From a virus (taxonomy: Duplodnaviria > Heunggongvirae > Uroviricota > Caudoviricetes): a stretch of 11,838 nt of DNA. Below the pieces are notes generated by a model. The model did not search any database. It was not told where the DNA came from and saw nothing but the letters and a program-made list of their open reading frames with translations. Each line of letters begins with the position of its first letter. Position 1 is the first letter of the stretch. Location of the stretch: IMG/VR virus record IMGVR_UViG_3300000059_000035, positions 1 through 11,838 of that record; one strand, written 5' to 3'. The position numbers and the translations under genes were made by a program. This document shows, in pieces, positions 1 through 9,767 of this stretch.

Positions 1-1
1 C

Positions 2-3000
2 CTGAAAGTCGTCGATGGCATTCTGGTATCTCCGGACGATTACGAAGGTAAGGACGGGGTATTTACCGGCTATCAGCTACGAACCGTAAACGGCAAAAAC
101 GGGAATGAGTTCAAGAAGGCCAACAATAAAGACGGCTTCCTGAACCAGTTAGAAAACTACCTGAACGGTGTTAAACCGCGTGGGCAGAACGCTAACGAGT
201 ACCTGGATAAAATTGCTCAACTGGAAGTTAGTTTTAACGACTGGTTACGCACCCACCCGCAGGCGGATCAGATAGCCCGCGAGTATAACGACGCATTCAA
301 TGGCTTCATTCCGTTCACGCACTCTAACGCACCGCTTGGCCTGGAAGGGATTAGTGGAAAGCGCATTCCTCTGACTTATCAGAATGAAGAAGTTCGGCGC
401 TTGTCAGAAGATGGGCGCGGCATCATGGGATTTGGTACCGGGCTGGGTAAAACCACGACCGCGCTTGCGCTTGAGGCGTATAACTTCGAAACAGGTCGCA
501 CTAAACGCACGTGTATTGTTGTTCCGAAGGCGGTTTATCAGAACTGGTATCACGAGGCACAGAGCTTCTACAGTGCTGATGCCTTCGCAAATATGATGTT
601 TATCGGTCTGGATGAAGTTCGTGATGAAGACGGCAATATTCTGACCGCGCCGGTGCTTGATGAAAATGGCGAACCCCGCCTCGACAGTAACGGGCAGCCT
701 CTTACCAGAAATGTTGTGAAAGAGTCCGCCAGCGCCGTTATCGTTCAGCGCATGAACATGATCCCGTCGTCAAATTGGCGAACGGTCATCATGACAAAAG
801 AACAATTCGCGTCTATCCCGCTACGAGAAAAAACCATCGAGGAGAACTCACAGCAAGCTGTCTTTAATGCTGTGGAAATGGGGCGTCTTGACCTGGCGTC
901 TGGTAAACACCGTGATGCGCAGAAGAAGAACAAGATTAAGGATCAGGCCGCGGATACCGGTACAACGAAGAAGCAGAATATCCCGTACTTTGAGGATATG
1001 AACTTCGATAGCGTGATTGCCGACGAGGGGCATAACTACCGCAACTCCTTTAATGCCGGGCGTGAAGCGGGACAACTGGCATATTTGCCTAACCCGGCAG
1101 TATCCAAGATGGCCCGCGACATGGCTGTAAAAGCTGCGTACATGATGAAACGCAACAACGGGCGTGGTGTAGTCATGCTGACGGCAACACCGCTGGTGAA
1201 CAGTCCGATTGATGCCTTCAACATGCTGTCTACTGTCATTCCGCAGGAAGAGTGGATGCGCATGGGCATCATTACGCCTGATGATTTCGTTCGTGTGTTT
1301 GGTAAAACAGCCACAGTTCAGGTCCAGAAAATTTCCGGGGAAGTGGAAGAGAAGCAGGGGCTGGTTGGCTTCCAGAACCTTGATGGCCTGCGTGGTATTT
1401 TCCATCGCTGGACTACTCTGAAGACTGCTGCGGACGTCGGGGCGACGGTTAAAATCCCTGATATTGTCGAGAATACCTTGCAGATCCCGATGACAGGGGA
1501 GCAGGAGGCTGCTTATGAAGAGCTTCGTAAGCGTGCACAGGAGTTAAGTAGTAAAGATGCGCTGACGGTTGATGAAAACGGGCATATCACAAACGAAAAA
1601 CCGGATGATTTCATCTTCTCCATCATCCGCGACATGGATAAGGTTGCTATAGATCCGGATCTGTATGCCAGTGCGATTACATTCCAGTTCCCCGTTGAGC
1701 TTGCAGACAAGGTAAAAGCTATTGCTGATGCCCTGCCAAAAGTAGCTGGCGGTAAAGTGGCAGATGATGCAGACGAGGCCGAAGAAGACGGCGCTGGTGG
1801 GCTGGTTAGTACGCGCACCAGTAAGGTAGTGAAGACCACCTTTAGTGAACATCCGGCGCATGTTGAAATACGTGCCAGCATTGAACTGGAAGCTGAAATA
1901 CTGAAGGCCATTGCTGCCGCCGGGATTGATCTGCAGCAGGTATCACACCCCATCCCGCCGAAGTATGCCGCGCTGATCGAAAACCTTCGTGAAGGTCTGA
2001 AGAACGGTAAACAAATTGTCTTCATTGATGAAAAAGCCCAGCACCAGAAGCTGCGCCGTATTATCGCCAGTGCACTGCAAATGCCGGAGCAGGAGATAGG
2101 CATTATCAATGCGACGACCGTTAGCCAGGCTGGCGGCATCAAGCTGAAGAAGGTGAATAAGCCGACTGAACCTACTCCGAATAAAAACGGTGAATACAAA
2201 GAAGGGGCATGGGAAACCTACTACAGCAAACTTGCCCAATATGAGGATTATCTCTCAGCTAAAAATGATGCTGGCCTTGAGGGTATGGAAGGCATTGCCG
2301 CCGACTATAACGAAGGGCGCACGCGCATCATTATCTGTAACAAGAAGGCTGAAGTAGGTATTAACCTGCATATCGGGACAACCGATATCCACCACCTGAC
2401 ACTACCCTGGACACCAGCCAGTATCGACCAACGAAATGGGCGCGGTGCGCGCGTAGGTTCACCGCAAGAGAAGGTCAATGTTCACTACTATTGTGGCAAA
2501 GGCACATTCGACGACTTCCGTCTGGATACGCTGAAACGTAAGAAAGACTGGATCAAGATGGTGATGACCTCCGATATGTCAGAGATCGCCAATGGTGATG
2601 CGGATGATGCTGATGAACGCGCCATTATGCTGGCGGCAAACCCGGAAGAACGCCGCGCAATCATGGCTCGCCAGGCGCAAGAGCGTGAAGAACGTCTGAA
2701 ACTGAAAGCACAGCGCGAGGCCAACAATGCTCTCGATATCTACCTAAAAGCGGCAAACGCCGCCGGAAAAGATATCGGCATGATGGAGACAGAACTGAAA
2801 AGCGCGATGGAGCAGATAGAGTATTACCAGCGCAATCTTGACGACCTGATAAAAGCGGGCACGAACAGGAATGGGCAAAAATACGCGCTTGAGCAGTTGA
2901 GTAGCTACAGAAAACGTGCGCGGGTGCTGCGGTTTGCGATCACCAGGGCAAAAGACGCGGATACCATAATGAAACGCTCTCGTGGTGATGTGGAGCGCGC

Positions 3001-4735
3001 TATTAAGTCTGGTGTGCTGGATATCAGTATCGATGTTATTCAGAACCCACAGGAATATATGCGCACTGACAAGAATATCCTGTTGCATAAAGGTAGTTAT
3101 TACCGTGCAGTCATTGATGATCGCGAAACAACAGCGATTGTCCGGGTGGAAAAAATTGACGGTGAAAAAGCACAGTACATCTGCCGTATCGCCTGGCTGG
3201 ATAGAGCAAGTCGTTACGCTCGATCACCGGGGTCAATCGTTACATTGCCGTTTGACTCTGTGATTGAAGCGGTAACTTTTGAAGAGGGGGTAGCTGAATC
3301 GCGCGCAACGGCTGCGCGTGGTGTTCAGTGCCACCAGCTATCAACAATACTTACTCGCGATCAGTTCTATGATGCTATTCGCAATGGGGTAATGAATGTT
3401 ATTGCTGGTAAACCTGGTAATGCATGGGGCGGTGGGTCAGCTATTAAATACTGGGCATATCGCACAGATGATGGTCAGATCGCGCTGTCATCGGCCTATG
3501 ATGGCGTGATAGGCCAAAAAATCGGGCGAGCATCGGATATAGCACCTGAACGATGGATATATCCAGATGGCAACGATGAGGCGCTGAAGCGTGAAGTGGC
3601 AAAAATACAAGCCAGTGATAACCCGCTGAATATCGTGGACGGAGAGGGATTCCTCCAGGCATTGTATGGGTATGATTACATCCAGGGAATGCAGGCATGG
3701 GGCGCACAGGCAACGATGGATGATGTTGCCAAGGAGTTCGAAAACTGGATGGCTGGGCGTGGTCTGTCAGGTCGTTCGCTTAATAAAGTCACTTCTGAAG
3801 ATATTCTTAGCCTGTTCCGCAAACCGTCCGGAGAAGGTCTGGAATCATTCTGGAGGACCGTGCTGGCATACCGTTTATTCCAGGGCAGGATGAAAGCCTT
3901 TAGCAATATCGATGATATTGAACGGATGTTTAATCAGGTCAAGATAGCGAAAATTAAGACGAAGATCGAAAAAACACGTTCTGCGCTGGTGGCCTGGCGC
4001 GATGCATTGTTTGAGCAATATAAATCACTCAGTGATGCAGATGGATGGGCGGCACTGGAACAGTTGGCGAATAATGGGGTAGATGGAGCGAAACTCGCCA
4101 TTGTCCAGGCTGATAACCCCCTGGAATCACCGGCAGCACAGTGGATTAAGGTGGGGGCTGTCATCAATGCATTTGATGAAAAACACATTAGTAAGGACGA
4201 TTTTGCTGATGCTGTTTCTGTTAATCGCCTGGTAGAAATGGCTACCCGCCGCGCCCGTGAGTTGAAAGACGGTGACTATGTGAATGAGTTGCCGGATGCG
4301 CTCAAATCAGCAACGTGGCAAGACTATGTATCGCTGAAAAACGGCGGGGCCACCGAATCAGAGATCGCGGAAAGGCTTGAACAGGCTGAAAGCAAAAGAG
4401 AAGAGCAGGCGGCAGTGGCAGAAGCCAGAGCTGATGAAGCGGCGAATGATGACTATATCATTGTGGTTAATGATAAGCCGATTCGCGCTAAGGCGCGTGT
4501 TCGCGGGCGCTGGTGGAGCGTCAGCGAGGACGTTGGCGCGGTTTATCTCATTGCCGACCAACCAGGTTCCTCGACAATACGGAACGCCAAAGACGCGATT
4601 AAGAAGATTGGCGGGCGTTTCTGGAATTTTGAAGTGAATCCGGTCGCGGATGTGGACTTTGACCGTCCGGCGTGGATGGTATCTACGCGTTACTCGGTAG
4701 ATGAACTGCGTAAAATAATCGCCGATGCGGCTTAA
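2..4735 (+). CDS. Giant multidomain protein, 5'-truncated by the window edge (1578 codons visible); SF2 DEGH-box helicase core followed by a ~750-aa C-terminal region of unknown function
   Basis: Frame 2 is open from position 2 through the TTG at 401 where the ORF track begins (I walked every codon; no stop), ending at TAA 4733-4735. Walker A GFGTGLGKTT at 428-460, DEGH box at 1022-1033, LTATP (motif III-like) at 1178-1192, motif VI QRNGRGARVG at 2429-2458. Acidic tract DDADEAEEDG and a charged coiled-coil-like segment (ERRAIMARQAQEREERLKLK). No convincing start or RBS in-window, so the N-terminus lies upstream. Confidence 0.85.
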   Translation: MKVVDGILVSPDDYEGKDGVFTGYQLRTVNGKNGNEFKKANNKDGFLNQLENYLNGVKPRGQNANEYLDKIAQLEVSFNDWLRTHPQADQIAREYNDAFNGFIPFTHSNAPLGLEGISGKRIPLTYQNEEVRRLSEDGRGIMGFGTGLGKTTTALALEAYNFETGRTKRTCIVVPKAVYQNWYHEAQSFYSADAFANMMFIGLDEVRDEDGNILTAPVLDENGEPRLDSNGQPLTRNVVKESASAVIVQRMNMIPSSNWRTVIMTKEQFASIPLREKTIEENSQQAVFNAVEMGRLDLASGKHRDAQKKNKIKDQAADTGTTKKQNIPYFEDMNFDSVIADEGHNYRNSFNAGREAGQLAYLPNPAVSKMARDMAVKAAYMMKRNNGRGVVMLTATPLVNSPIDAFNMLSTVIPQEEWMRMGIITPDDFVRVFGKTATVQVQKISGEVEEKQGLVGFQNLDGLRGIFHRWTTLKTAADVGATVKIPDIVENTLQIPMTGEQEAAYEELRKRAQELSSKDALTVDENGHITNEKPDDFIFSIIRDMDKVAIDPDLYASAITFQFPVELADKVKAIADALPKVAGGKVADDADEAEEDGAGGLVSTRTSKVVKTTFSEHPAHVEIRASIELEAEILKAIAAAGIDLQQVSHPIPPKYAALIENLREGLKNGKQIVFIDEKAQHQKLRRIIASALQMPEQEIGIINATTVSQAGGIKLKKVNKPTEPTPNKNGEYKEGAWETYYSKLAQYEDYLSAKNDAGLEGMEGIAADYNEGRTRIIICNKKAEVGINLHIGTTDIHHLTLPWTPASIDQRNGRGARVGSPQEKVNVHYYCGKGTFDDFRLDTLKRKKDWIKMVMTSDMSEIANGDADDADERAIMLAANPEERRAIMARQAQEREERLKLKAQREANNALDIYLKAANAAGKDIGMMETELKSAMEQIEYYQRNLDDLIKAGTNRNGQKYALEQLSSYRKRARVLRFAITRAKDADTIMKRSRGDVERAIKSGVLDISIDVIQNPQEYMRTDKNILLHKGSYYRAVIDDRETTAIVRVEKIDGEKAQYICRIAWLDRASRYARSPGSIVTLPFDSVIEAVTFEEGVAESRATAARGVQCHQLSTILTRDQFYDAIRNGVMNVIAGKPGNAWGGGSAIKYWAYRTDDGQIALSSAYDGVIGQKIGRASDIAPERWIYPDGNDEALKREVAKIQASDNPLNIVDGEGFLQALYGYDYIQGMQAWGAQATMDDVAKEFENWMAGRGLSGRSLNKVTSEDILSLFRKPSGEGLESFWRTVLAYRLFQGRMKAFSNIDDIERMFNQVKIAKIKTKIEKTRSALVAWRDALFEQYKSLSDADGWAALEQLANNGVDGAKLAIVQADNPLESPAAQWIKVGAVINAFDEKHISKDDFADAVSVNRLVEMATRRARELKDGDYVNELPDALKSATWQDYVSLKNGGATESEIAERLEQAESKREEQAAVAEARADEAANDDYIIVVNDKPIRAKARVRGRWWSVSEDVGAVYLIADQPGSSTIRNAKDAIKKIGGRFWNFEVNPVADVDFDRPAWMVSTRYSVDELRKIIADAA

Positions 4736-4746
4736 CAGATAAGGAG

Positions 4747-4764
4747 CGGCCCCAGCCGGGGCCG
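4747..4764 (+). other. GC-rich hairpin (7-bp stem CGGCCCC/GGGGCCG, 4-nt loop) between an AAGGAG Shine-Dalgarno (4741-4746) and the ATG at 4772
   Basis: Perfect inverted repeat read directly; no U-tract follows, so it is not a canonical intrinsic terminator. Confidence 0.6.
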
Positions 4765-4771
4765 GATTTGA

Positions 4772-5206
4772 ATGACGACATTAATTGACACTGTAAAACC
4801 GACGGAATCCTACCTTGAGGATATTTTGCCGCAGGCGCTCAATGGCAGGAGTGAAGAGGCGTTTCTGGATGCATATCTGGATGGTATGGTGGAAAGGCTG
4901 AAACGAGATCCACAGCTTTATCACCTTTATGGCCCGTGGTGGCCTGCGCTTAAAACGTTATTGCTGGAGCGCGGCGACATATCATTTGGACAAGTTGTAG
5001 ATAGTGATGTGGCAGAGATCTACAAAATGAGTCGCCCGGCGCTTACGGTTTTAGCCGGGCATCTGTATTCAAGCGATCGCCTGGAAAATGACGCGGTATA
5101 CAATCCCGTTCATGCTCTGGAAGTCGCGCCTTATGCTGATGATACAGAGCCATATGTGTACACAAGTTACGACGAGTCGATAGAGAAATATCGAATCATG
5201 GGGTAG
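4772..5206 (+). CDS. Hypothetical acidic protein, 144 aa
   Basis: ATG ORF 36 nt downstream of the giant gene stop; about 25 D/E versus 12 K/R by my count; stop TAG 5204-5206 lies 2 nt before the next ATG. Confidence 0.6.
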   Translation: MTTLIDTVKPTESYLEDILPQALNGRSEEAFLDAYLDGMVERLKRDPQLYHLYGPWWPALKTLLLERGDISFGQVVDSDVAEIYKMSRPALTVLAGHLYSSDRLENDAVYNPVHALEVAPYADDTEPYVYTSYDESIEKYRIMG

Positions 5207-5208
5207 CT

Positions 5209-5469
5209 ATGCGAAAGAATCGTAGGTTTACGATCGACGACTTAAAAGCGTACTCACAAGGGAAGGGATACGCCCTTGAATACCACCGTTATAAGCGGGT
5301 ATTTACCCTGCGGCATATAGAAAACCCTTCGAAATGGGGATGGATTTATTTTCCGCACACTGACGATAAGCTGGTGGGCCTTGTTGATGATTTATCCTAT
5401 GAAGGATGGATGATCGCTATCGACAAGGCGGTTACAGAAATTAACGAACCGGATAAAATAAACCATTAA
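5209..5469 (+). CDS. Hypothetical protein, 86 aa
   Basis: ATG at 5209 is 2 nt after the upstream stop (TAGCTATG), suggesting translational coupling; same strand and context. No recognisable motif. Confidence 0.5.
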   Translation: MRKNRRFTIDDLKAYSQGKGYALEYHRYKRVFTLRHIENPSKWGWIYFPHTDDKLVGLVDDLSYEGWMIAIDKAVTEINEPDKINH

Positions 5470-5473
5470 AAAT

Positions 5474-5513
5474 AACAAGTTGGGTAAATGACATACAATT
5501 TACCCGGCTTGTT
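5474..5513 (+). other. Long hairpin just after the 86-aa gene (16-bp stem with two G-U pairs, 8-nt loop); possible terminator or RNA stabiliser lacking a U-tract
   Basis: AACAAGTTGGGTAAAT (5474-5489) pairs with ATTTACCCGGCTTGTT (5498-5513); core GGGTAAAT/ATTTACCC is a perfect 8-bp inverted repeat. Confidence 0.5.
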
Positions 5514-5592
5514 GACCCGCATCACCATTTACTCTAAAAACAAGTCCGACCTGTTGCATCCGCCTATCTCTTTAGTAGTATTTCCCCCGGTT

Positions 5593-5620
5593 TTGATAAA
5601 ACTAACGCTCTTGTTATTAT
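5593..5620 (+). promoter_or_regulatory. Candidate sigma70-type promoter (-35 TTGATA, 16-bp spacer, -10 TATTAT)
   Basis: TTGATA at 5593-5598 and TATTAT at 5615-5620, about 35 nt upstream of the VRR-NUC ORF start. Confidence 0.4.
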
Positions 5621-5644
5621 CGTGATCATGATTTCAGGAAGTTT

Positions 5645-5654
5645 GTGTTAGAAA
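5645..5654 (+). promoter_or_regulatory. Copy of the recurring GTGTTAGAAA motif, ending 1 nt before the TTG start at 5656
   Basis: Exact 10-mer shared with 7945-7954 and 8095-8104. Confidence 0.4.
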
Positions 5655-5655
5655 T

Positions 5656-6102
5656 TTGATTCGAAGACGCAGGCATCATAGTGCGTATTCTGAAATATCC
5701 CCGCACGCTGCTGCACTAAGAGAGTTAGAAAGAAATCCTGACTTACTAAAAAGGAATTACGAACATTACGAACAGGTTCGCGTTCTGGATTGGCTGTATC
5801 GCAACATGCGATACGTGTATGAGCACACACACTCAACACCGAACGGCGGCCTGAGAGGCAAAAGGACAGCCATTAAGATGGTGGCAGAAGGTCAGAAGAA
5901 GGGCTATCCGGACCTTTCTATTGACCTTGCTCGTGGTGGGTATCACGGAATGCGCATTGAGATGAAGCACGGGAGAAACCGTCTGACTCCCGAACAGCTC
6001 GTCTGGATGACCCGCCTCACGGAAGCAGGCTATTACTGCTTTGAGGCGCGCAGTGCCGATGAAGCCATAAAAGCTATCACGGAATATGTAAATCTTGATT
6101 AA
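5656..6102 (+). CDS. VRR-NUC domain nuclease (PD-(D/E)xK superfamily), 148 aa if the TTG start is used
   Basis: Conserved VRR-NUC-like segments read in the translation: HSTPNGG, GYPDLSI, RIEMKHG (E-x-K), TPEQLVWMTRLTEAGYYCF. Stop TAA 6100-6102. Start is uncertain: the only in-frame start codon before the conserved N-terminal region is TTG at 5656, with weak SD. Confidence 0.7.
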   Translation: MIRRRRHHSAYSEISPHAAALRELERNPDLLKRNYEHYEQVRVLDWLYRNMRYVYEHTHSTPNGGLRGKRTAIKMVAEGQKKGYPDLSIDLARGGYHGMRIEMKHGRNRLTPEQLVWMTRLTEAGYYCFEARSADEAIKAITEYVNLD

Positions 6103-6116
6103 ACGGAGAAATCGTT

Positions 6117-6317
6117 TTGCGTTTACTTAACGTGGCTGAACTTATCCCTGCCGGTGCTAACGTTGTTGCTCGTCGCTGCTCATGGCCTCATTCTTTCTGT
6201 ATAGAGCTTAAAAAGATGGATGATGGGGCATTAGAAGCCCGAAACATAGTTACCGGCGACAAGGTATGCATTACCCCGGAAAGCGCGAAAGCCAATGATT
6301 GGGAGTTTGTTCATTGA
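6117..6317 (+). CDS. Hypothetical small protein, 66 aa (TTG start)
   Basis: GGAG at 6104-6107 lies 9 nt upstream of TTG 6117; stop TGA 6315-6317. No motif recognised; short, so uncertain. Confidence 0.35.
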   Translation: MRLLNVAELIPAGANVVARRCSWPHSFCIELKKMDDGALEARNIVTGDKVCITPESAKANDWEFVH

Positions 6318-6625
6318 GCAGAAAACACCACGTAAATCTGACGTTTGCTGATGACGCCGGAAGAACCAGAAGCATAACCATGAAAGTTGCTTCCAGGAAA
6401 GTAACCGCTCCACTTATACGAGAGGCCGTAAGTGAACTTGAGATGAGTGAGAATGCAGCTCTGTTATCGGTAAGCTGGCTGGGGAAAATGACGGATCAGG
6501 AATACTCGGATGGTATACCCCACGGTGAGCGGCAGATAGTAAAGCGCGCGCTTAGAATTTCAGAGGTAGTTGTCGTACTGATAGCTTTGATTTATATGGC
6601 ATACATGCTACTTCAACACGTCTAA
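6314..6625 (+). CDS. Hypothetical small protein with a C-terminal hydrophobic (probable transmembrane) segment; start uncertain (TTG 6314 or ATG 6380)
   Basis: TTG 6314-6316 overlaps the upstream TGA (TTGA) with GGGAG at 6301-6305; alternative ATG at 6380. C-terminus ISEVVVVLIALIYMAYMLLQHV is strongly hydrophobic. Stop TAA 6623-6625. Confidence 0.4.
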   Translation: MSRKHHVNLTFADDAGRTRSITMKVASRKVTAPLIREAVSELEMSENAALLSVSWLGKMTDQEYSDGIPHGERQIVKRALRISEVVVVLIALIYMAYMLLQHV

Positions 6626-6633
6626 ACGGTCAT

Positions 6634-6660
6634 AAACCCGCCAGTTGGCGGGTTTTTTGT
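6634..6660 (+). terminator. Rho-independent terminator
   Basis: Stem CCCGCC (6637-6642) / GGCGGG (6647-6652), loop AGTT, followed by TTTTTT (6653-6658). Confidence 0.8.
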
Positions 6661-6676
6661 TGCCTGAGTCTTTTTA

Positions 6677-6713
6677 TTGAAATTGCATACTAATAAAATA
6701 TGTTAGAAAACTA
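6677..6713 (+). promoter_or_regulatory. Candidate promoter for the 402-aa gene (-35 TTGAAA, 16-bp spacer, -10 TATGTT) overlapping a TGTTAGAAAACTA motif copy
   Basis: TTGAAA 6677-6682, TATGTT 6699-6704; motif GTTAGAAAACTA at 6702-6713; the ATG at 6735 has an AGGGAA-type SD. Confidence 0.5.
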
Positions 6714-6734
6714 ATTTCAAGAAAGGGAACAAAC

Positions 6735-7943
6735 ATGAGTCAGCAAGTAGAATCATCAAGCCTGGAGATCATCTCAACCGCAATTGAAACGCTGCGGACA
6801 CAAATCGCGCTTATACAGAAACGAAATCCGGGCGATGACCTGTCAAAGCGACTGCATGAGAGCGTCATTGCCACTACAGATAACCTGGTGGCGGAAATCA
6901 ACCAGCTCCTTGATGATGGGGCAGTTGATTACAATAAGCTGGTGGATCAGTTTGAGGAATATCAGCAAGCCGTTAATGATGGCTTGATCCGTTTTTCTCA
7001 AGTCACTGGTGTATCAGCGACAGTTGAAAGCCTGGGGGATGCTGTTAATCAATTTGCCGCGAATATGCGTAATGAGATCGGCAATCTGGAGGCGCGTCTT
7101 GAGCAGGCAAATACACTGCGCAAATCTGCTGAAGTCGATTTGAGTCGTTACAAAAAAGACTATCCGCCAAGCCTGACAAAACGACTGGATGTTGCGGAGA
7201 AAGATAACCGCACGCTGAAAAGAGAGCGTCGGGAACTAAAAGAGCGTTTAACCAAGCTAAATCAGCAATGCGTTGAGTATCAAGGCGAACTCGTCACGCT
7301 GCGTAAAAAGTTAGCAGCGGCGCAGAGCATTATTGAAACATTGAAACGAGAGTGCTCAGAGCTTGGTCATGATCTGAATCGCGCCTGTGGCATGGGGCAA
7401 AGGCCAGAGACATTCCCGCTAATGTATGACGGAAGAGAAGCTATTGCCTATATCCATGAGTTTCCGCATGGTCTGGTCGCGGAGACTGGGCAACGTGGCG
7501 AAGCGTTGCTGACGGCAAATTACCATCAGCAAATCAGAACCAGCCGCCTGCTGACGATGGATGTGATCCCGTCAGTATGGGGAACGCCGCTTTACTACCG
7601 AATTCCTGGCTTCGAAACTGACTGGAATACCGACATAGACGAATGTCTGGCAGATAAAATTATGGCGTACCTTGAAACGGATTTTCCACGCTTGCATCGC
7701 CGGATTATGGACTCTAAGGATGCACCGATCGACGAATTGAAAATGCGTCCAGAGACGTTGGAGGCAATCAAGCAGACTGAGTTTGATACAGTGTTCAGTG
7801 TGGCCTGCATTCCAAGCAGCTTTCATGAAAGCATTCCGTTCATGCAGGGCGATCGACGTCAGGAAATAATTGATGCTTGCCGGGTATGGGCGAACGAGTG
7901 GGATAAGAAGAACGGTGGAGTTGAAAATCTTTACGGGAAATAA
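6735..7943 (+). CDS. Hypothetical protein, 402 aa: N-terminal ~220 aa predicted coiled coil, C-terminal ~180 aa globular domain of unknown function
   Basis: ATG with SD; long ORF; heptad-like charged segments (for example RLDVAEKDNRTLKRERRELKERLTKLNQQCVEYQGELVTLRKKLAAAQ); flanked by a terminator upstream and a palindrome downstream. No catalytic motif recognised. Confidence 0.75.
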   Translation: MSQQVESSSLEIISTAIETLRTQIALIQKRNPGDDLSKRLHESVIATTDNLVAEINQLLDDGAVDYNKLVDQFEEYQQAVNDGLIRFSQVTGVSATVESLGDAVNQFAANMRNEIGNLEARLEQANTLRKSAEVDLSRYKKDYPPSLTKRLDVAEKDNRTLKRERRELKERLTKLNQQCVEYQGELVTLRKKLAAAQSIIETLKRECSELGHDLNRACGMGQRPETFPLMYDGREAIAYIHEFPHGLVAETGQRGEALLTANYHQQIRTSRLLTMDVIPSVWGTPLYYRIPGFETDWNTDIDECLADKIMAYLETDFPRLHRRIMDSKDAPIDELKMRPETLEAIKQTEFDTVFSVACIPSSFHESIPFMQGDRRQEIIDACRVWANEWDKKNGGVENLYGK

Positions 7944-7944
7944 T

Positions 7945-7976
7945 GTGTTAGAAAACTAAAATTATCTTTCTAACAT
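7945..7976 (+). promoter_or_regulatory. Palindromic operator-like site: GTGTTAGAAA - 12 bp - TTTCTAACAT
   Basis: Arms 7945-7954 and 7967-7976 are reverse complements at 9 of 10 positions; it sits 2 nt after the stop codon of the 402-aa gene. Confidence 0.5.
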
Positions 7977-8011
7977 GTTGATTATGGGATTAACTTAACA
8001 TAGAATTTTTC

Positions 8012-8081
8012 GTGCTGGTGGGGAGCTTCCCATGTCGCTTGCGGGTTTGATAGTCACTTCATTGTCTTCCCCCACCAGCAC
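8012..8081. repeat. Long-stem inverted repeat (about 13-bp stem with one bulge, 43-nt interior), tRNA-sized (70 nt)
   Basis: GTGCTGGTGGGGA (8012-8024) pairs with TCCCCCACCAGCAC (8068-8081). Confidence 0.45.
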
Positions 8082-8094
8082 CAAACAAACTTAA

Positions 8095-8104
8095 GTGTTA
8101 GAAA
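8095..8104 (+). promoter_or_regulatory. Copy of the GTGTTAGAAA motif
   Basis: Exact 10-mer; AT-rich flanks. Confidence 0.4.
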
Positions 8105-8246
8105 GTAAATTTTAAGGTAAGGGAAAGCTCCGGCACCGTGCAAATACATGCCCGGCAGGTTTAGTGCGTAAAGTGGTTTCAGCGAGAGCATTTTACGGAG
8201 TAAACGACAGTGACTTGAGCCACGGAAGGTCTTTTTAAGGTGTTCA

Positions 8247-8274
8247 TTGATGATGATCTGGCAGTGAGTATGTT
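8247..8274 (+). promoter_or_regulatory. Candidate promoter (-35 TTGATG, 16-bp spacer, -10 TATGTT) upstream of the small ORF at 8338
   Basis: Same -10 hexamer (TATGTT) and spacer length as the 6677-6704 candidate. Confidence 0.35.
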
Positions 8275-8337
8275 AAGTGGGCCAGGCTGCATCGGGTCAT
8301 CATCAGTGCACATCCTCAACGTTAAGGAGGCGCAGAG

Positions 8338-8529
8338 TTGGGTTTTCCTCTTATTTTGCTGACTCTGAGTCTCCTTAACGTTGCGGTAATGCACCTATGC
8401 GGATGTGGCCTTGCATTGTGTTTTGAAAGAATGGGGGTAAGGCCGGGGATATCCCCAGGGGGAGGCACCCCCGCTGCAACGAACAGCCATAGACGGCAGT
8501 CGAGTGATGAAAACGTGAAAAGACTTTAA
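8338..8529 (+). CDS. Small protein (63 aa) with a hydrophobic N-terminal half; candidate membrane peptide
   Basis: Strong SD AAGGAGG at 8324-8330, 7 nt before TTG 8338; N-terminus GFPLILLTLSLLNVAVMHLCGCGLALCF is hydrophobic, C-terminus polar. Non-ATG start and short length keep confidence low. Confidence 0.35.
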   Translation: MGFPLILLTLSLLNVAVMHLCGCGLALCFERMGVRPGISPGGGTPAATNSHRRQSSDENVKRL

Positions 8530-8606
8530 ACCTCGTTACGGCTGGCGTGGCAAACGCGACAACCGGGATAGGACGGTGACGGGCGGAGAGAGAGCCGCTT
8601 CAAGAT

Positions 8607-8673
8607 AAAAGCCGACTATGGATTCCTTTCTGCGGGCCTTTGAAAGTGAATCTTGCTCAGGCAGTCGGCTTTT
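8607..8673. repeat. Long-stem inverted repeat (perfect 11-bp stem, 45-nt interior), tRNA-sized (67 nt)
   Basis: AAAAGCCGACT (8607-8617) pairs with AGTCGGCTTTT (8663-8673). Confidence 0.45.
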
Positions 8674-8803
8674 ATGTTGATACGTAGCGATAACCGCGAC
8701 AGGCGCGGCGGTAAGTATGGCGGGGTTATTCCTTCCCCGTTGAGGACACCGAGTTGCCAGGTTGACCATACGCCTAAGTGGCAATACCGCGAGTGGGATA
8801 TTT

Positions 8804-8828
8804 GCCCACCTTCGGGTGGGTGTTTTTT
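8804..8828 (+). terminator. Rho-independent terminator
   Basis: Stem CCCACC (8805-8810) / GGTGGG (8815-8820), loop TTCG, followed by TGTTTTTT. Confidence 0.8.
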
Positions 8829-9012
8829 CAGTGTTTTCGTCATGGTTAGCGACTTTGCGGCGGTTTAGAACCCGACCATTAAAGTAAATGCAAACGATGA
8901 TCTGATGATGGTAGCGGCCTAAGAAGCCTGACGCCACGGGGTATGAGTCGTCCCCCGTCAAAAAATCGACCGCAGAGTGTCCCCGTCTGTGTATTAGGGA
9001 ACGGGGAGGCAT

Positions 9013-9089
9013 AACAGGCAAGGGCGCTGGTGTGATTAACCAGATGAATGAGAAGGGGCAGGTCTTTCTGGTCAGCGCCCTTACCTGTT
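9013..9089. repeat. Long-stem inverted repeat (17-bp stem with 1 mismatch, 43-nt interior), tRNA-sized (77 nt)
   Basis: AACAGGCAAGGGCGCTG (9013-9029) pairs with CAGCGCCCTTACCTGTT (9073-9089). Confidence 0.45.
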
Positions 9090-9288
9090 GCGTCCTTCCC
9101 GCGTAACAGCCATTGGTTAATGGCTTTCTGGATAATGTCTTGTAACGGGTATATCCCGTCATGCTGAAGGCGCTAATCACGCTGGAAGCCAGGGTTATGC
9201 ATCCCCTGTTACCGAATTGCAGCCAGGGCGCGGTGCGCCGAAAAGCATACGGAGGTGGAAGCCCTCGCCGGAGACGTACCCGGCAAGT

Positions 9289-9365
9289 GATGGTGTAGCT
9301 CAGTAGGATAGAGCAGCAGCCTTCTAAGCTGTCGGTCGGTGGTTCGAATCCACCCACCATCGCCA
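9289..9365 (+). tRNA. tRNA-Arg (anticodon TCT)
   Basis: Cloverleaf read by hand: acceptor GATGGTG/CACCATC, D-arm GCTC-AGTAGGATA-GAGC, anticodon stem GCAGC/GCTGT with loop CTTCTAA, T-arm GGTGG-TTCGAAT-CCACC, discriminator G, encoded CCA. D-arm and anticodon loop resemble E. coli argU as I recall it. Confidence 0.9.
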
Positions 9366-9370
9366 ATTTA

Positions 9371-9457
9371 GGGGAGTTAGTCCGTAGGGGTAGCGGGGTA
9401 GACTGTAAATCTACTGTCATTGCGACTCGGATGGTTCGACTCCATCACTCCCCACCA
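9371..9457 (+). tRNA. tRNA-Tyr (anticodon GTA), type II with long variable arm
   Basis: Acceptor GGGGAGT/ACTCCCC, anticodon stem GTAGA/TCTAC with loop CTGTAAA, long variable arm TGTCATTGCGACTCG (similar to E. coli tyrT as I recall it), T-arm GATGG-TTCGACT-CCATC, encoded CCA. D-arm pairing is imperfect as drawn by hand. Confidence 0.8.
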
Positions 9458-9461
9458 AATT

Positions 9462-9537
9462 GCCGGTTTAGCTCAGTTGGTAGAGCAGTCGCTTTGTAAG
9501 CGAATGGCCAGCGGTTCAAGTCCGTTAACCGGCACCA
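9462..9537 (+). tRNA. tRNA-Thr (anticodon TGT)
   Basis: Acceptor GCCGGTT/AACCGGC, D-arm GCTC-AGTTGGTA-GAGC, anticodon stem GTCGC/GCGAA with loop TTTGTAA, T-arm AGCGG-TTCAAGT-CCGTT, discriminator A, encoded CCA. Confidence 0.9.
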
Positions 9538-9545
9538 ACACAACA

Positions 9546-9619
9546 GGTAAGGGTATTTTGCGACGTCGGAGATCGCCGTGCTTGGCAGAGGGTTCGAATC
9601 CCTACGAAGTACCCTTACC
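9546..9619 (+). other. tRNA-like remnant or tRNA-sized hairpin (74 nt) directly after the tRNA array; not a canonical tRNA
   Basis: Perfect 10-bp terminal stem GGTAAGGGTA (9546-9555) / TACCCTTACC (9610-9619) enclosing a T-arm-like hairpin AGGG-TTCGAAT-CCCT (9589-9603). Nine extra nt lie between the T-stem and the 3' acceptor strand, and no D-arm or anticodon arm can be drawn. Confidence 0.35.
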
Positions 9620-9767
9620 GTTGTGGTGAATGCGCAGGCTGATGCGCGAAAGACATTGCAGCTATTGCGGAAAAGAGCTGTTCGGCGGGGCAATTAAACG
9701 CCCGTGAGAGTCTGAAATAACCGCAAGCCGGAGATCAGCACCGGTCACCACAACAGCCACTGCTTTG

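Follow-up and report, generated by a model that had tools for sequence, protein, structure and literature searches.

Predicted codon supply and nuclease insurance in a tRNA-Arg-Tyr-Thr array of a D6/P1-type phage-plasmid

The viral sequence IMGVR_UViG_3300000059_000035 from IMG/VR carries, within the 11,838-nucleotide stretch analyzed here (the window), three tightly packed genes for tRNA-Arg(UCU), tRNA-Tyr(GUA), and tRNA-Thr(UGU). Our favored explanation, which we consider reasonably probable, is that this array is a mixed supply-plus-insurance tRNA module of a D6/P1-type phage-plasmid that evolves by exchange of cassettes and short patches. Under this explanation, the role of tRNA-Arg would be best explained by codon supply, and that of tRNA-Thr by supply plus what appears to be a signature of resistance to the nuclease Old and, in part, to the PARIS system, while tRNA-Tyr is probably a back-up against attack of the PtuAB type.

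We called tRNAs across the 11.8-kb window with ARAGORN and with the Rfam model RF00005 (gathering score 29 bits). ARAGORN found exactly three tRNA genes, all on the plus strand and head to tail, and the array is laid out as follows.

9289-9365, plus strand: tRNA-Arg(UCU), slot 1 of the array (ARAGORN tct; Rfam 72.1 bits, E=1.5e-14)
9366-9370, plus strand: spacer ATTTA, 5 nt, read from the sequence
9371-9457, plus strand: tRNA-Tyr(GUA) (ARAGORN gta; Rfam 43.8 bits, E=9.2e-07)
9458-9461, plus strand: spacer AATT, 4 nt, read from the sequence
9462-9537, plus strand: tRNA-Thr(UGU) (ARAGORN tgt; Rfam 69.0 bits, E=1.1e-13)

A sequence-only reading of this DNA had described an Arg(TCT)-Tyr(GTA)-Thr(TGT) cluster with spacers of 5 and 4 nt and encoded CCA ends, and every detail of that description agrees with ARAGORN, Rfam, and the sequence, ARAGORN returning the same isotypes and coordinates. 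All three genes encode the CCA end, preceded by discriminator G in tRNA-Arg and A in both tRNA-Tyr and tRNA-Thr. In Escherichia coli, arginine identity lies in A20, C35, and U36; tyrosine identity in U35, A73, and the long variable arm; and threonine identity in G1-C72, C2-G71, G35, and U36. The tRNA-Arg gene has the anticodon arm GCAGC CTTCTAA GCTGT, a D-loop (AGTAGGATA) that gives A20, and G73 as in argU. At 87 nt, the tRNA-Tyr belongs to class II; its variable arm is long and its discriminator is A73. The tRNA-Thr combines the acceptor stem GCCGGTT/AACCGGC with the anticodon arm GTCGC TTTGTAA GCGAA, which belongs to the second of two allele classes, A and B, that we distinguish below; its 27:43 pair (G.A) is the sole non-canonical pair flagged by Rfam and is conserved within class B. 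By the E. coli rules, the Arg, Tyr, and Thr genes thus carry the identity elements for their synthetases, and all three are intact. We conclude that these are genuine bacterial elongator tRNA genes, as the calls confirm, and that they look functional.

A D6/P1-type phage-plasmid makes up the window from position 1 to about 9640-9755; it is 99.1% identical to the E. coli plasmid pEC361_3, and its backbone (1-9640) has 92% identity to phage D6; the phage origin that the sequence-only reading had implied was therefore right. Contiguous BLAST alignments running through the array to P1, D6, and Ro157c2YLVW place it at the position that trnA(Asn)-trnT(Thr) occupies in P1; the P1 annotation (NC_005856) assigns this slot to the ban operon, under C1 control, with a "dicF-like region" upstream. 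The slot holds Asn-Thr in P1 and D6, Asn-Tyr-Thr in Ro157c2YLVW, and Arg-Tyr-Thr in pEC361_3 and the window; D6-type elements have Ser(tga) and CAU (Ile2-type) tRNAs further downstream of the array. With the P1 array, trnA(Asn)-trnT(Thr)(-trnI), the window shares the slot and flanks of 86-88% homology, the slot-1 acceptor stem, discriminator, and T-arm, the Thr scaffold, the tight packing, and the encoded CCA. It differs in having Arg(UCU) rather than Asn(GUU) in slot 1, an inserted Tyr(GUA) cassette, and a class B Thr anticodon arm in place of the host-like class A arm of P1; moreover, the C1-controlled Pban/Op72 of P1 is absent upstream in the window's D6-type element. The backbone is common to D6 and the D6-like plasmid prophages (tRNA Asn, Thr, Ser, Met; PMC6799933), and pEC361_3, the closest relative of the window, has the same downstream Ser(UGA) and CAU tRNAs as D6-like elements, whereas the described D6-like tRNA sets have Asn instead of Arg and no Tyr (PMC6799933).

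The array also recurs elsewhere. An identical 256-nt array is found in the RefSeq plasmid NZ_CP104667.1, where PGAP labels tRNA-Arg, Tyr, Thr, Ser, and Ile; in PLSDB, the 256-nt stretch has matches at 99% or more on at least 24 plasmids; and a plasmid-borne tRNA-Arg of the window type is present in 68 of 5426 complete E. coli genomes. It is, then, a real, phage-borne, recurrent, and ordinary phage tRNA cluster of a known family, already annotated in RefSeq, and the present analysis adds to it a chimeric tRNA-Arg built on an Asn scaffold, Thr anticodon arms that are interchangeable, and flanks that are both structured and conserved.

To weigh codon supply, we compared the 103 annotated coding sequences of pEC361_3 (24,846 codons) with 42 MG1655 genes (14,748 codons). 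The six codons most enriched in pEC361_3 were AGG (6.4-fold), AGA (5.3-fold; 6.68 vs 1.22 per 1000), AUA (4.8-fold), ACA (3.1-fold; 16.8 vs 5.4 per 1000), CGA (2.7-fold), and UCA (2.6-fold). Four of the five tRNAs of pEC361_3 (Arg-UCU, Ile2-CAU, Thr-UGU, and Ser-UGA) decode codons among these six (hypergeometric P=1.4e-4), as do two of the three in the window taken alone (P=0.023). ACA is commoner in structural genes (20.3 vs 13.8 per 1000), but AGA is not. E. coli K-12 reads AGA/AGG and ACA with the single-copy minor tRNAs argU and thrU. The Tyr codons were unenriched (UAU 1.24-fold, UAC 1.10-fold), and the Asn codons, read by the slot-1 tRNA of the relatives, stood at 1.0- to 1.6-fold. Codon compensation, which the sequence-only reading had offered for the cluster, is thus supported for tRNA-Arg and tRNA-Thr and unsupported for tRNA-Tyr.

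The tRNA-Thr gene also differs from its host counterpart at the positions that matter for two tRNA-cutting defenses. The tRNA that P2 Old destroys by preference is tRNA-Thr(UGU), which it cleaves behind the C in the paired CNG motifs of positions 28-30 and 40-42; phage tRNA-Thr has been shown experimentally to resist Old through a changed CNG together with a U43A-type loss of the 27:43 pair, both of which are needed (PMC12445682). The PARIS nuclease AriB cleaves its target less or not at all when this carries U39->A, A41->C, or, in the D-loop, U16->C, and a resistant tRNA-Lys(UUU) was found necessary to neutralize B185 PARIS (PMC12409363). The anticodon stem of host thrU, ACUGA/UCAGU, has 5 bp with a CUG and a CAG motif and is accompanied by the AriB site U36AAUCA41. 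In the window, the stem GUCGC/GCGAA contains a G27.A43 mismatch that leaves 4 bp, and neither strand has a CNG, positions 28-30/40-42 reading UCG and CGA against CUG and CAG in the host. Its AriB site is U36AAGCG41, so that positions 39 and 41 are both changed, each to G, unlike the published U39->A and A41->C (PMC12409363). The P1-type (class A) stem, CCUGC/GCAGG, retains 5 bp and both CNG motifs; classes A and B differ as a block over positions 26-44 on an otherwise near-identical scaffold. These comparisons support the conclusion that the window's tRNA-Thr carries both published Old-resistance changes, from which resistance itself is predicted. A counter-defense role, which the sequence-only reading had raised, is thereby backed at the level of sequence for Thr(UGU) against Old and PARIS AriB (PMC12445682, PMC12409363); its extension to Arg against colicin D is not, as we describe below.

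The tRNA-Asn genes of the array family can be read in the same way. In the P1 array, tRNA-Asn has U36AAUCA41, which is the optimal PARIS AriB site, together with C16, while host tRNA-Asn has C41; the other Asn allele class of the family has C39. At motif level, the P1 tRNA-Asn would thus not obviously resist AriB.

For tRNA-Tyr, the relevant nuclease is PtuAB of retron-Eco7/Septu, which cuts tRNA-Tyr(GUA) in the variable arm at C48/A49, and phage tRNA-Tyr rescues from PtuAB, partly by dosage (PMC11555353, PMC13096335). The variable arm of the window's tRNA-Tyr has the GUC/GAC stem of the host with a loop of 5 nt, compared to 3 in the host. Evasion of PtuAB would call for a distinct variable arm at the cleavage site or for overexpression from a strong promoter. 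A counter-defense role against PtuAB/Septu is plausible for this gene. The isoacceptors Thr(UGU) and Tyr(GUA) are the same ones that T5/T4-type phages deploy against AriB, Old, and PtuAB (PMC11464382, PMC12409363, PMC12445682, PMC11555353, PMC13096335), and the window's tRNA-Thr has, like the T5/T4-type tRNAs, anticodon-stem changes of the Old-resistance kind and AriB 39/41 substitutions, with an effect that is predicted here from sequence. The settings differ: the window belongs to a temperate phage-plasmid with three to five tRNAs, compared to about 8-24 in the virulent T5/T4-type phages, and unlike those systems its array has no tRNA-Lys and has the host cleavage junction in tRNA-Tyr.

We next considered how the array came to have this content, using a 15-mer scan of IMG/VR supplemented by one for the Arg anticodon arm; the two together yielded 78 complete arrays of the family. 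The slot-1 scaffold is always GATGGTG...CACCATC-G-CCA (a few alleles start GGTGGTG), and it carries Asn in 60 of the 78 arrays and Arg in the other 18. At positions 1-15 and 45-77, the window's tRNA-Arg does not differ from a common family tRNA-Asn(GUU) allele, its departures being confined to the D-loop (AGCGGTA -> AGTAGGATA, creating A20) and the anticodon arm; overall, it matches this Asn allele at 64 of 77 positions compared to 53 of 77 for argU. As E. coli tRNA-Asn and argU both have G73, a switch from asparaginyl- to arginyl-tRNA synthetase needs exactly the segment that was replaced. The gene looks like a chimera, new to this analysis, that joins an Asn scaffold to a P22/lambdoid-type D-loop and anticodon arm. 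A 23-nt stretch, GAGCAGCAGCCTTCTAAGCTGTC, that spans the 3' D-stem, position 26, the anticodon arm, and position 44, and includes G27.U43, recurs on unrelated scaffolds in five viral contigs; an Ile2(CAU)-Arg pair is present in two of these, and P22/lambdoid-type holin genes adjoin the tRNA in one. The Ile2(CAU)-Arg(UCU) tRNAs that lambdoid/P22 prophages carry beside lysis genes have GAGCAGCAGCCTTCTAAGCTGTC in identical form and a D-loop also of the GGATA type, but their tRNA-Arg has unrelated acceptor and T stems and a different genomic context. A search of phage records for the donor-type tRNA-Arg gave no match. The most economical reading would be short-patch conversion of a resident Asn gene by a lambdoid/P22-type tRNA-Arg gene; alternatively, tRNA-Arg may have arisen by remodeling in situ.

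The other components of the array vary as well. The Tyr gene is an optional cassette that about 40% of related arrays possess, and among the 78 arrays almost every combination of slot-1 identity, Thr arm class, and presence or absence of Tyr is represented, amounting to almost free assortment. Thus, the Arg-Tyr-Thr arrays divide into six with class A and five with class B Thr arms, and the Asn-Tyr-Thr arrays into eight and seven. This pattern indicates repeated recombination within about 250 bp.

Together, these observations suggest the following course of events. A single precursor transcript would contain the whole array behind a long, conserved leader (described below), and host RNase P/E and 3' trimming would release the tRNAs from it; CCA addition would be unneeded because CCA is encoded. 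As supply, tRNA-Arg(UCU) and tRNA-Thr(UGU) would decode AGA(/AGG) and ACA, which are 3-6 times commoner than in host genes. As insurance, the array would protect from the tRNA-cutting defenses of competing mobile elements: the Thr allele would serve this end through both Old-resistance stem changes and the AriB 39/41 substitutions, and tRNA-Tyr, for which we see no codon rationale, would duplicate the target of PtuAB. Slot 1 would have been converted from Asn to Arg by replacement of the D-loop and anticodon arm only.

Several points weigh against this explanation. We infer expression, aminoacylation, and nuclease resistance alike from sequence and published rules, and a promoter search upstream of the array in the D6-type element pinned down no array promoter. 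On the supply side, AGA stands at 5.1 per 1000 near Arg-carrying arrays and 5.7 near those of Asn-carrying relatives (1.45 in a K-12 sample by the same open reading frame (ORF) method), so that codon usage leaves the Asn-to-Arg swap unexplained. We accordingly rejected a lineage-specific shift in codon usage as the driver of the swap; the equal AGA demand across relatives means that tRNA-Arg meets a demand already present family-wide. On the insurance side, the window's tRNA-Thr retains U16 (AGTTGG), and there is no tRNA-Lys(UUU) in the window or its relatives by ARAGORN, the relatives' annotation, or the 78 arrays; for both reasons full neutralization of PARIS, and thus full anti-PARIS activity of the array, seems unlikely. 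The host-like class A Thr arm is found in about half of the Arg-Tyr-Thr arrays, and Old resistance would therefore not be a fixed property of the array. The tRNA-Tyr keeps the host GUC|A junction, which is the site of Septu cleavage. Finally, tRNA-Arg has no apparent escape signature, since its anticodon loop, CUUCUAA, is the same as that of host argU and its stem has a CAG/CUG pair, the CNG pair preferred by Old, which argU is without. The sequence-only reading had named the colicin D family as an example of nucleases that the array might counter, and tRNA-Arg is a target of colicin D (PMC12409363). We rejected escape from colicin D on account of the identical loop and the gained CNG pair, and the demand for AGA/AGG explains tRNA-Arg better.

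How do these data bear on simpler accounts? Pure codon-usage compensation, in which all three tRNAs top up the decoding of an AT-richer codon usage and none evades a defense, is an unlikely alternative that nevertheless deserves serious attention. It is the classical reading of the P1 tRNAs, and it draws on the match between the element's tRNA set and its most enriched codons (AGA, AGG, AUA, ACA, and UCA) and on the abundance of ACA in structural genes. It does not account for tRNA-Tyr, whose codons are unenriched and for which the host has three tyr genes; the destabilizing mismatch at 27:43 of tRNA-Thr combined with the loss of both CNG motifs is the Old-resistance pair and is hard to explain by decoding; and the shuffling of arm classes between arrays also speaks against it. 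The converse account, that each tRNA is a nuclease-resistant stand-in for a host tRNA, including Arg against colicin D-type toxins, strikes us as improbable. Thr(UGU) and Tyr(GUA) are indeed documented targets of Old/PARIS and PtuAB/Septu, and colicin D attacks tRNA-Arg (PMC12409363), but the argU-like loop and CNG-bearing stem of tRNA-Arg, the rank of AGA and AGG as the two most enriched codons, the host cleavage junction kept in tRNA-Tyr, and the lack of a Lys tRNA all stand in its way.

The genes could also be passengers or relics, that is, hitch-hiking cargo or former integration targets without a current role, and the variability of array content, with Asn alone in 19 of the 78 arrays, fits such an origin. 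We regard this as very improbable given that all genes are intact with canonical identity elements, that the array and its tRNA-Arg type recur in plasmids (at least 24 in PLSDB at 99% or more) and complete genomes (68 of 5426) as described above, that plasmid replication needs no tRNA attachment site, and that the flanking leader is strongly constrained. A module that combines supply with insurance remains the explanation we prefer.

The flanks of the array contain the following elements.

8803-8829, plus strand: terminator-like hairpin, 8 bp, GCCCACC-TTCG-GGTGGGT plus T-run
8829-9288, plus strand: non-coding leader, 460 nt, 93-100% conserved among 35 distinct P1/D6/Ro157-type sequences
8890-8922, plus strand: start-less frame resembling the tag of transfer-messenger RNA (tmRNA), GCA AAC GAT GAT CTG ATG ATG GTA GCG GCC TAA, encoding ANDDLMMVAA*
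about 8314-8386: hairpin H1, same theme as H2 and H3
9008-9094, plus strand: hairpin H2, a paralogue of H3 with near-identical 5' arm, AACAGGCAAGGG
9539-9626, plus strand: hairpin H3, directly 3' of tRNA-Thr, 88 nt, -41 kcal/mol, z=-5.0 vs shuffles

Conservation of the leader exceeds that of the stretch just upstream (45-79%) and of the neighboring genes (82-93% identical), and no conserved ORF accounts for it. A 294-aa ATG ORF on the minus strand (8536-9420), which lies over the leader and two of the tRNAs, was rejected as spurious, being interrupted in the 99% relative pEC361_3, in P1, and in D6. The frame encoding ANDDLMMVAA* is preceded by an in-frame stop at 8866-8868, ends in a degron-like VAA before its own stop, and is invariant among the 35 distinct relatives bar four singleton variants. 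It gives sub-threshold matches to Rfam tmRNA models (RF04321, 24.1 bits vs a gathering score of 47, in an alignment that skips the tRNA-like part of the model). ARAGORN called no tmRNA, and the leader region 8780-8922 has no tRNA-like domain (CCA end, G3:U70); a canonical tmRNA in the leader was rejected on the missing domain and the low Rfam score.

The array and the 3' part of the leader lie between H2 and H3. The three hairpins form a family of about 73-90 nt and approximately -40 kcal/mol each, with the outer-stem theme CAAC-(A)GG/TT.AAGG...CCTT..CC-GTTG. The outer stem of H3, of approximately 21 bp, is kept family-wide by compensatory changes (TA<->AT, GC<->AT, TA<->CG), while its core is hypervariable, with at least eight unrelated sequences, several of which contain T-arm-like hairpins, in the window GGGTTCGAATCCC. 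The latter had raised the possibility of a fourth tRNA at 9547-9620; neither ARAGORN nor Rfam calls one, the segment is the core of the long hairpin, and we rejected the candidate because the core there is unrelated in other lineages. On the minus strand, P1 "plp" is annotated with a C-terminus that overlies H3, and the plp annotation is therefore doubtful in this part.

Upstream, the sole sigma70-like site is at 7978-8006, and the terminator-like hairpin lies between it and the tRNAs, at a position homologous to the 3' part of the "dicF-like region" of P1; despite this label, DicF has no Rfam match at E ≤ 10. Homology to P1 begins 40 nt downstream of the Pban -10 element, and we found no P1 C1 operator upstream within 3 mismatches and hence no sign of a C1-repressed Pban. 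The C1-controlled Pban is a feature of P1 itself and not of the D6 branch. Further to the left, the long ORF at 401-4735 (1444 aa listed, entering from the left edge) corresponds to the C-terminal part of a DarB-like SNF2/helicase anti-restriction protein, which is 2279 aa at full length in D6-type plasmids, and is followed by ulx-like, pmgM/R-like, and pmgS-like genes.

To the right of the array, the phage-plasmid gives way to lambdoid DNA within one further element.

9620-9755, no strand assigned: 136-bp module bounded by a 10-nt inverted repeat, GTTGTGGTGA...TCACCACAAC

This module is common to D6/P1-type plasmids and lambdoid phages, and the switch from P1/D6 to lambdoid sequence occurs within it; the early-left region of lambdoid/Stx phages (yfdP, yfdQ, 5'-nucleotidase) matches the window at 97-98% identity from 9619 to its right end. 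Among phages, plasmids, complete E. coli genomes, IMG/VR, and GTDB genomes, no record spans the junction. One independent metagenome contig (ERZ808037 NODE_2447), a P1-type Asn-Thr element, crosses it and continues to 9862 at 96% identity. Because this contig continues through the junction, the P1/lambdoid mosaic is probably a real recombinant rather than an assembly chimera. The contig match stops 11 nt short of two N bases in the window (9873 and 9875), which lie about 120 nt right of the junction and may reflect a repeat or collapse problem in assembly; a repeat-induced assembly problem may thus exist right of 9862. The junction question leaves the tRNA genes unaffected.

A broader proposal, which we put forward as doubtful speculation, is that the tRNA locus of the P1 family acts as an RNA cassette that can be reprogrammed. 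H2 and H3 would bracket the leader and array, and arms or whole genes would be exchanged by short-patch recombination with the tRNA genes of other phages, each exchange altering either identity (Asn to Arg) or nuclease sensitivity (Thr A to B) in the course of an arms race; the ANDDLMMVAA* frame in the leader could be a tmRNA-derived element of the same translation-rescue module.

Phage tRNA arrays have lately been recast from codon helpers to counter-defense tools, mainly in large virulent phages (T4, T5), and the temperate phage-plasmids that are widespread in E. coli may follow this logic too. A single array here brings together a tRNA-Arg that fits codon demand, a tRNA-Tyr that fits a defense target only, and a tRNA-Thr that fits both. 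The apparent Asn-to-Arg chimera and the two interchangeable Thr arms constitute natural allele pairs on identical scaffolds, and such pairs would be ready-made reagents for the specificity of Old, PARIS, and PtuAB.

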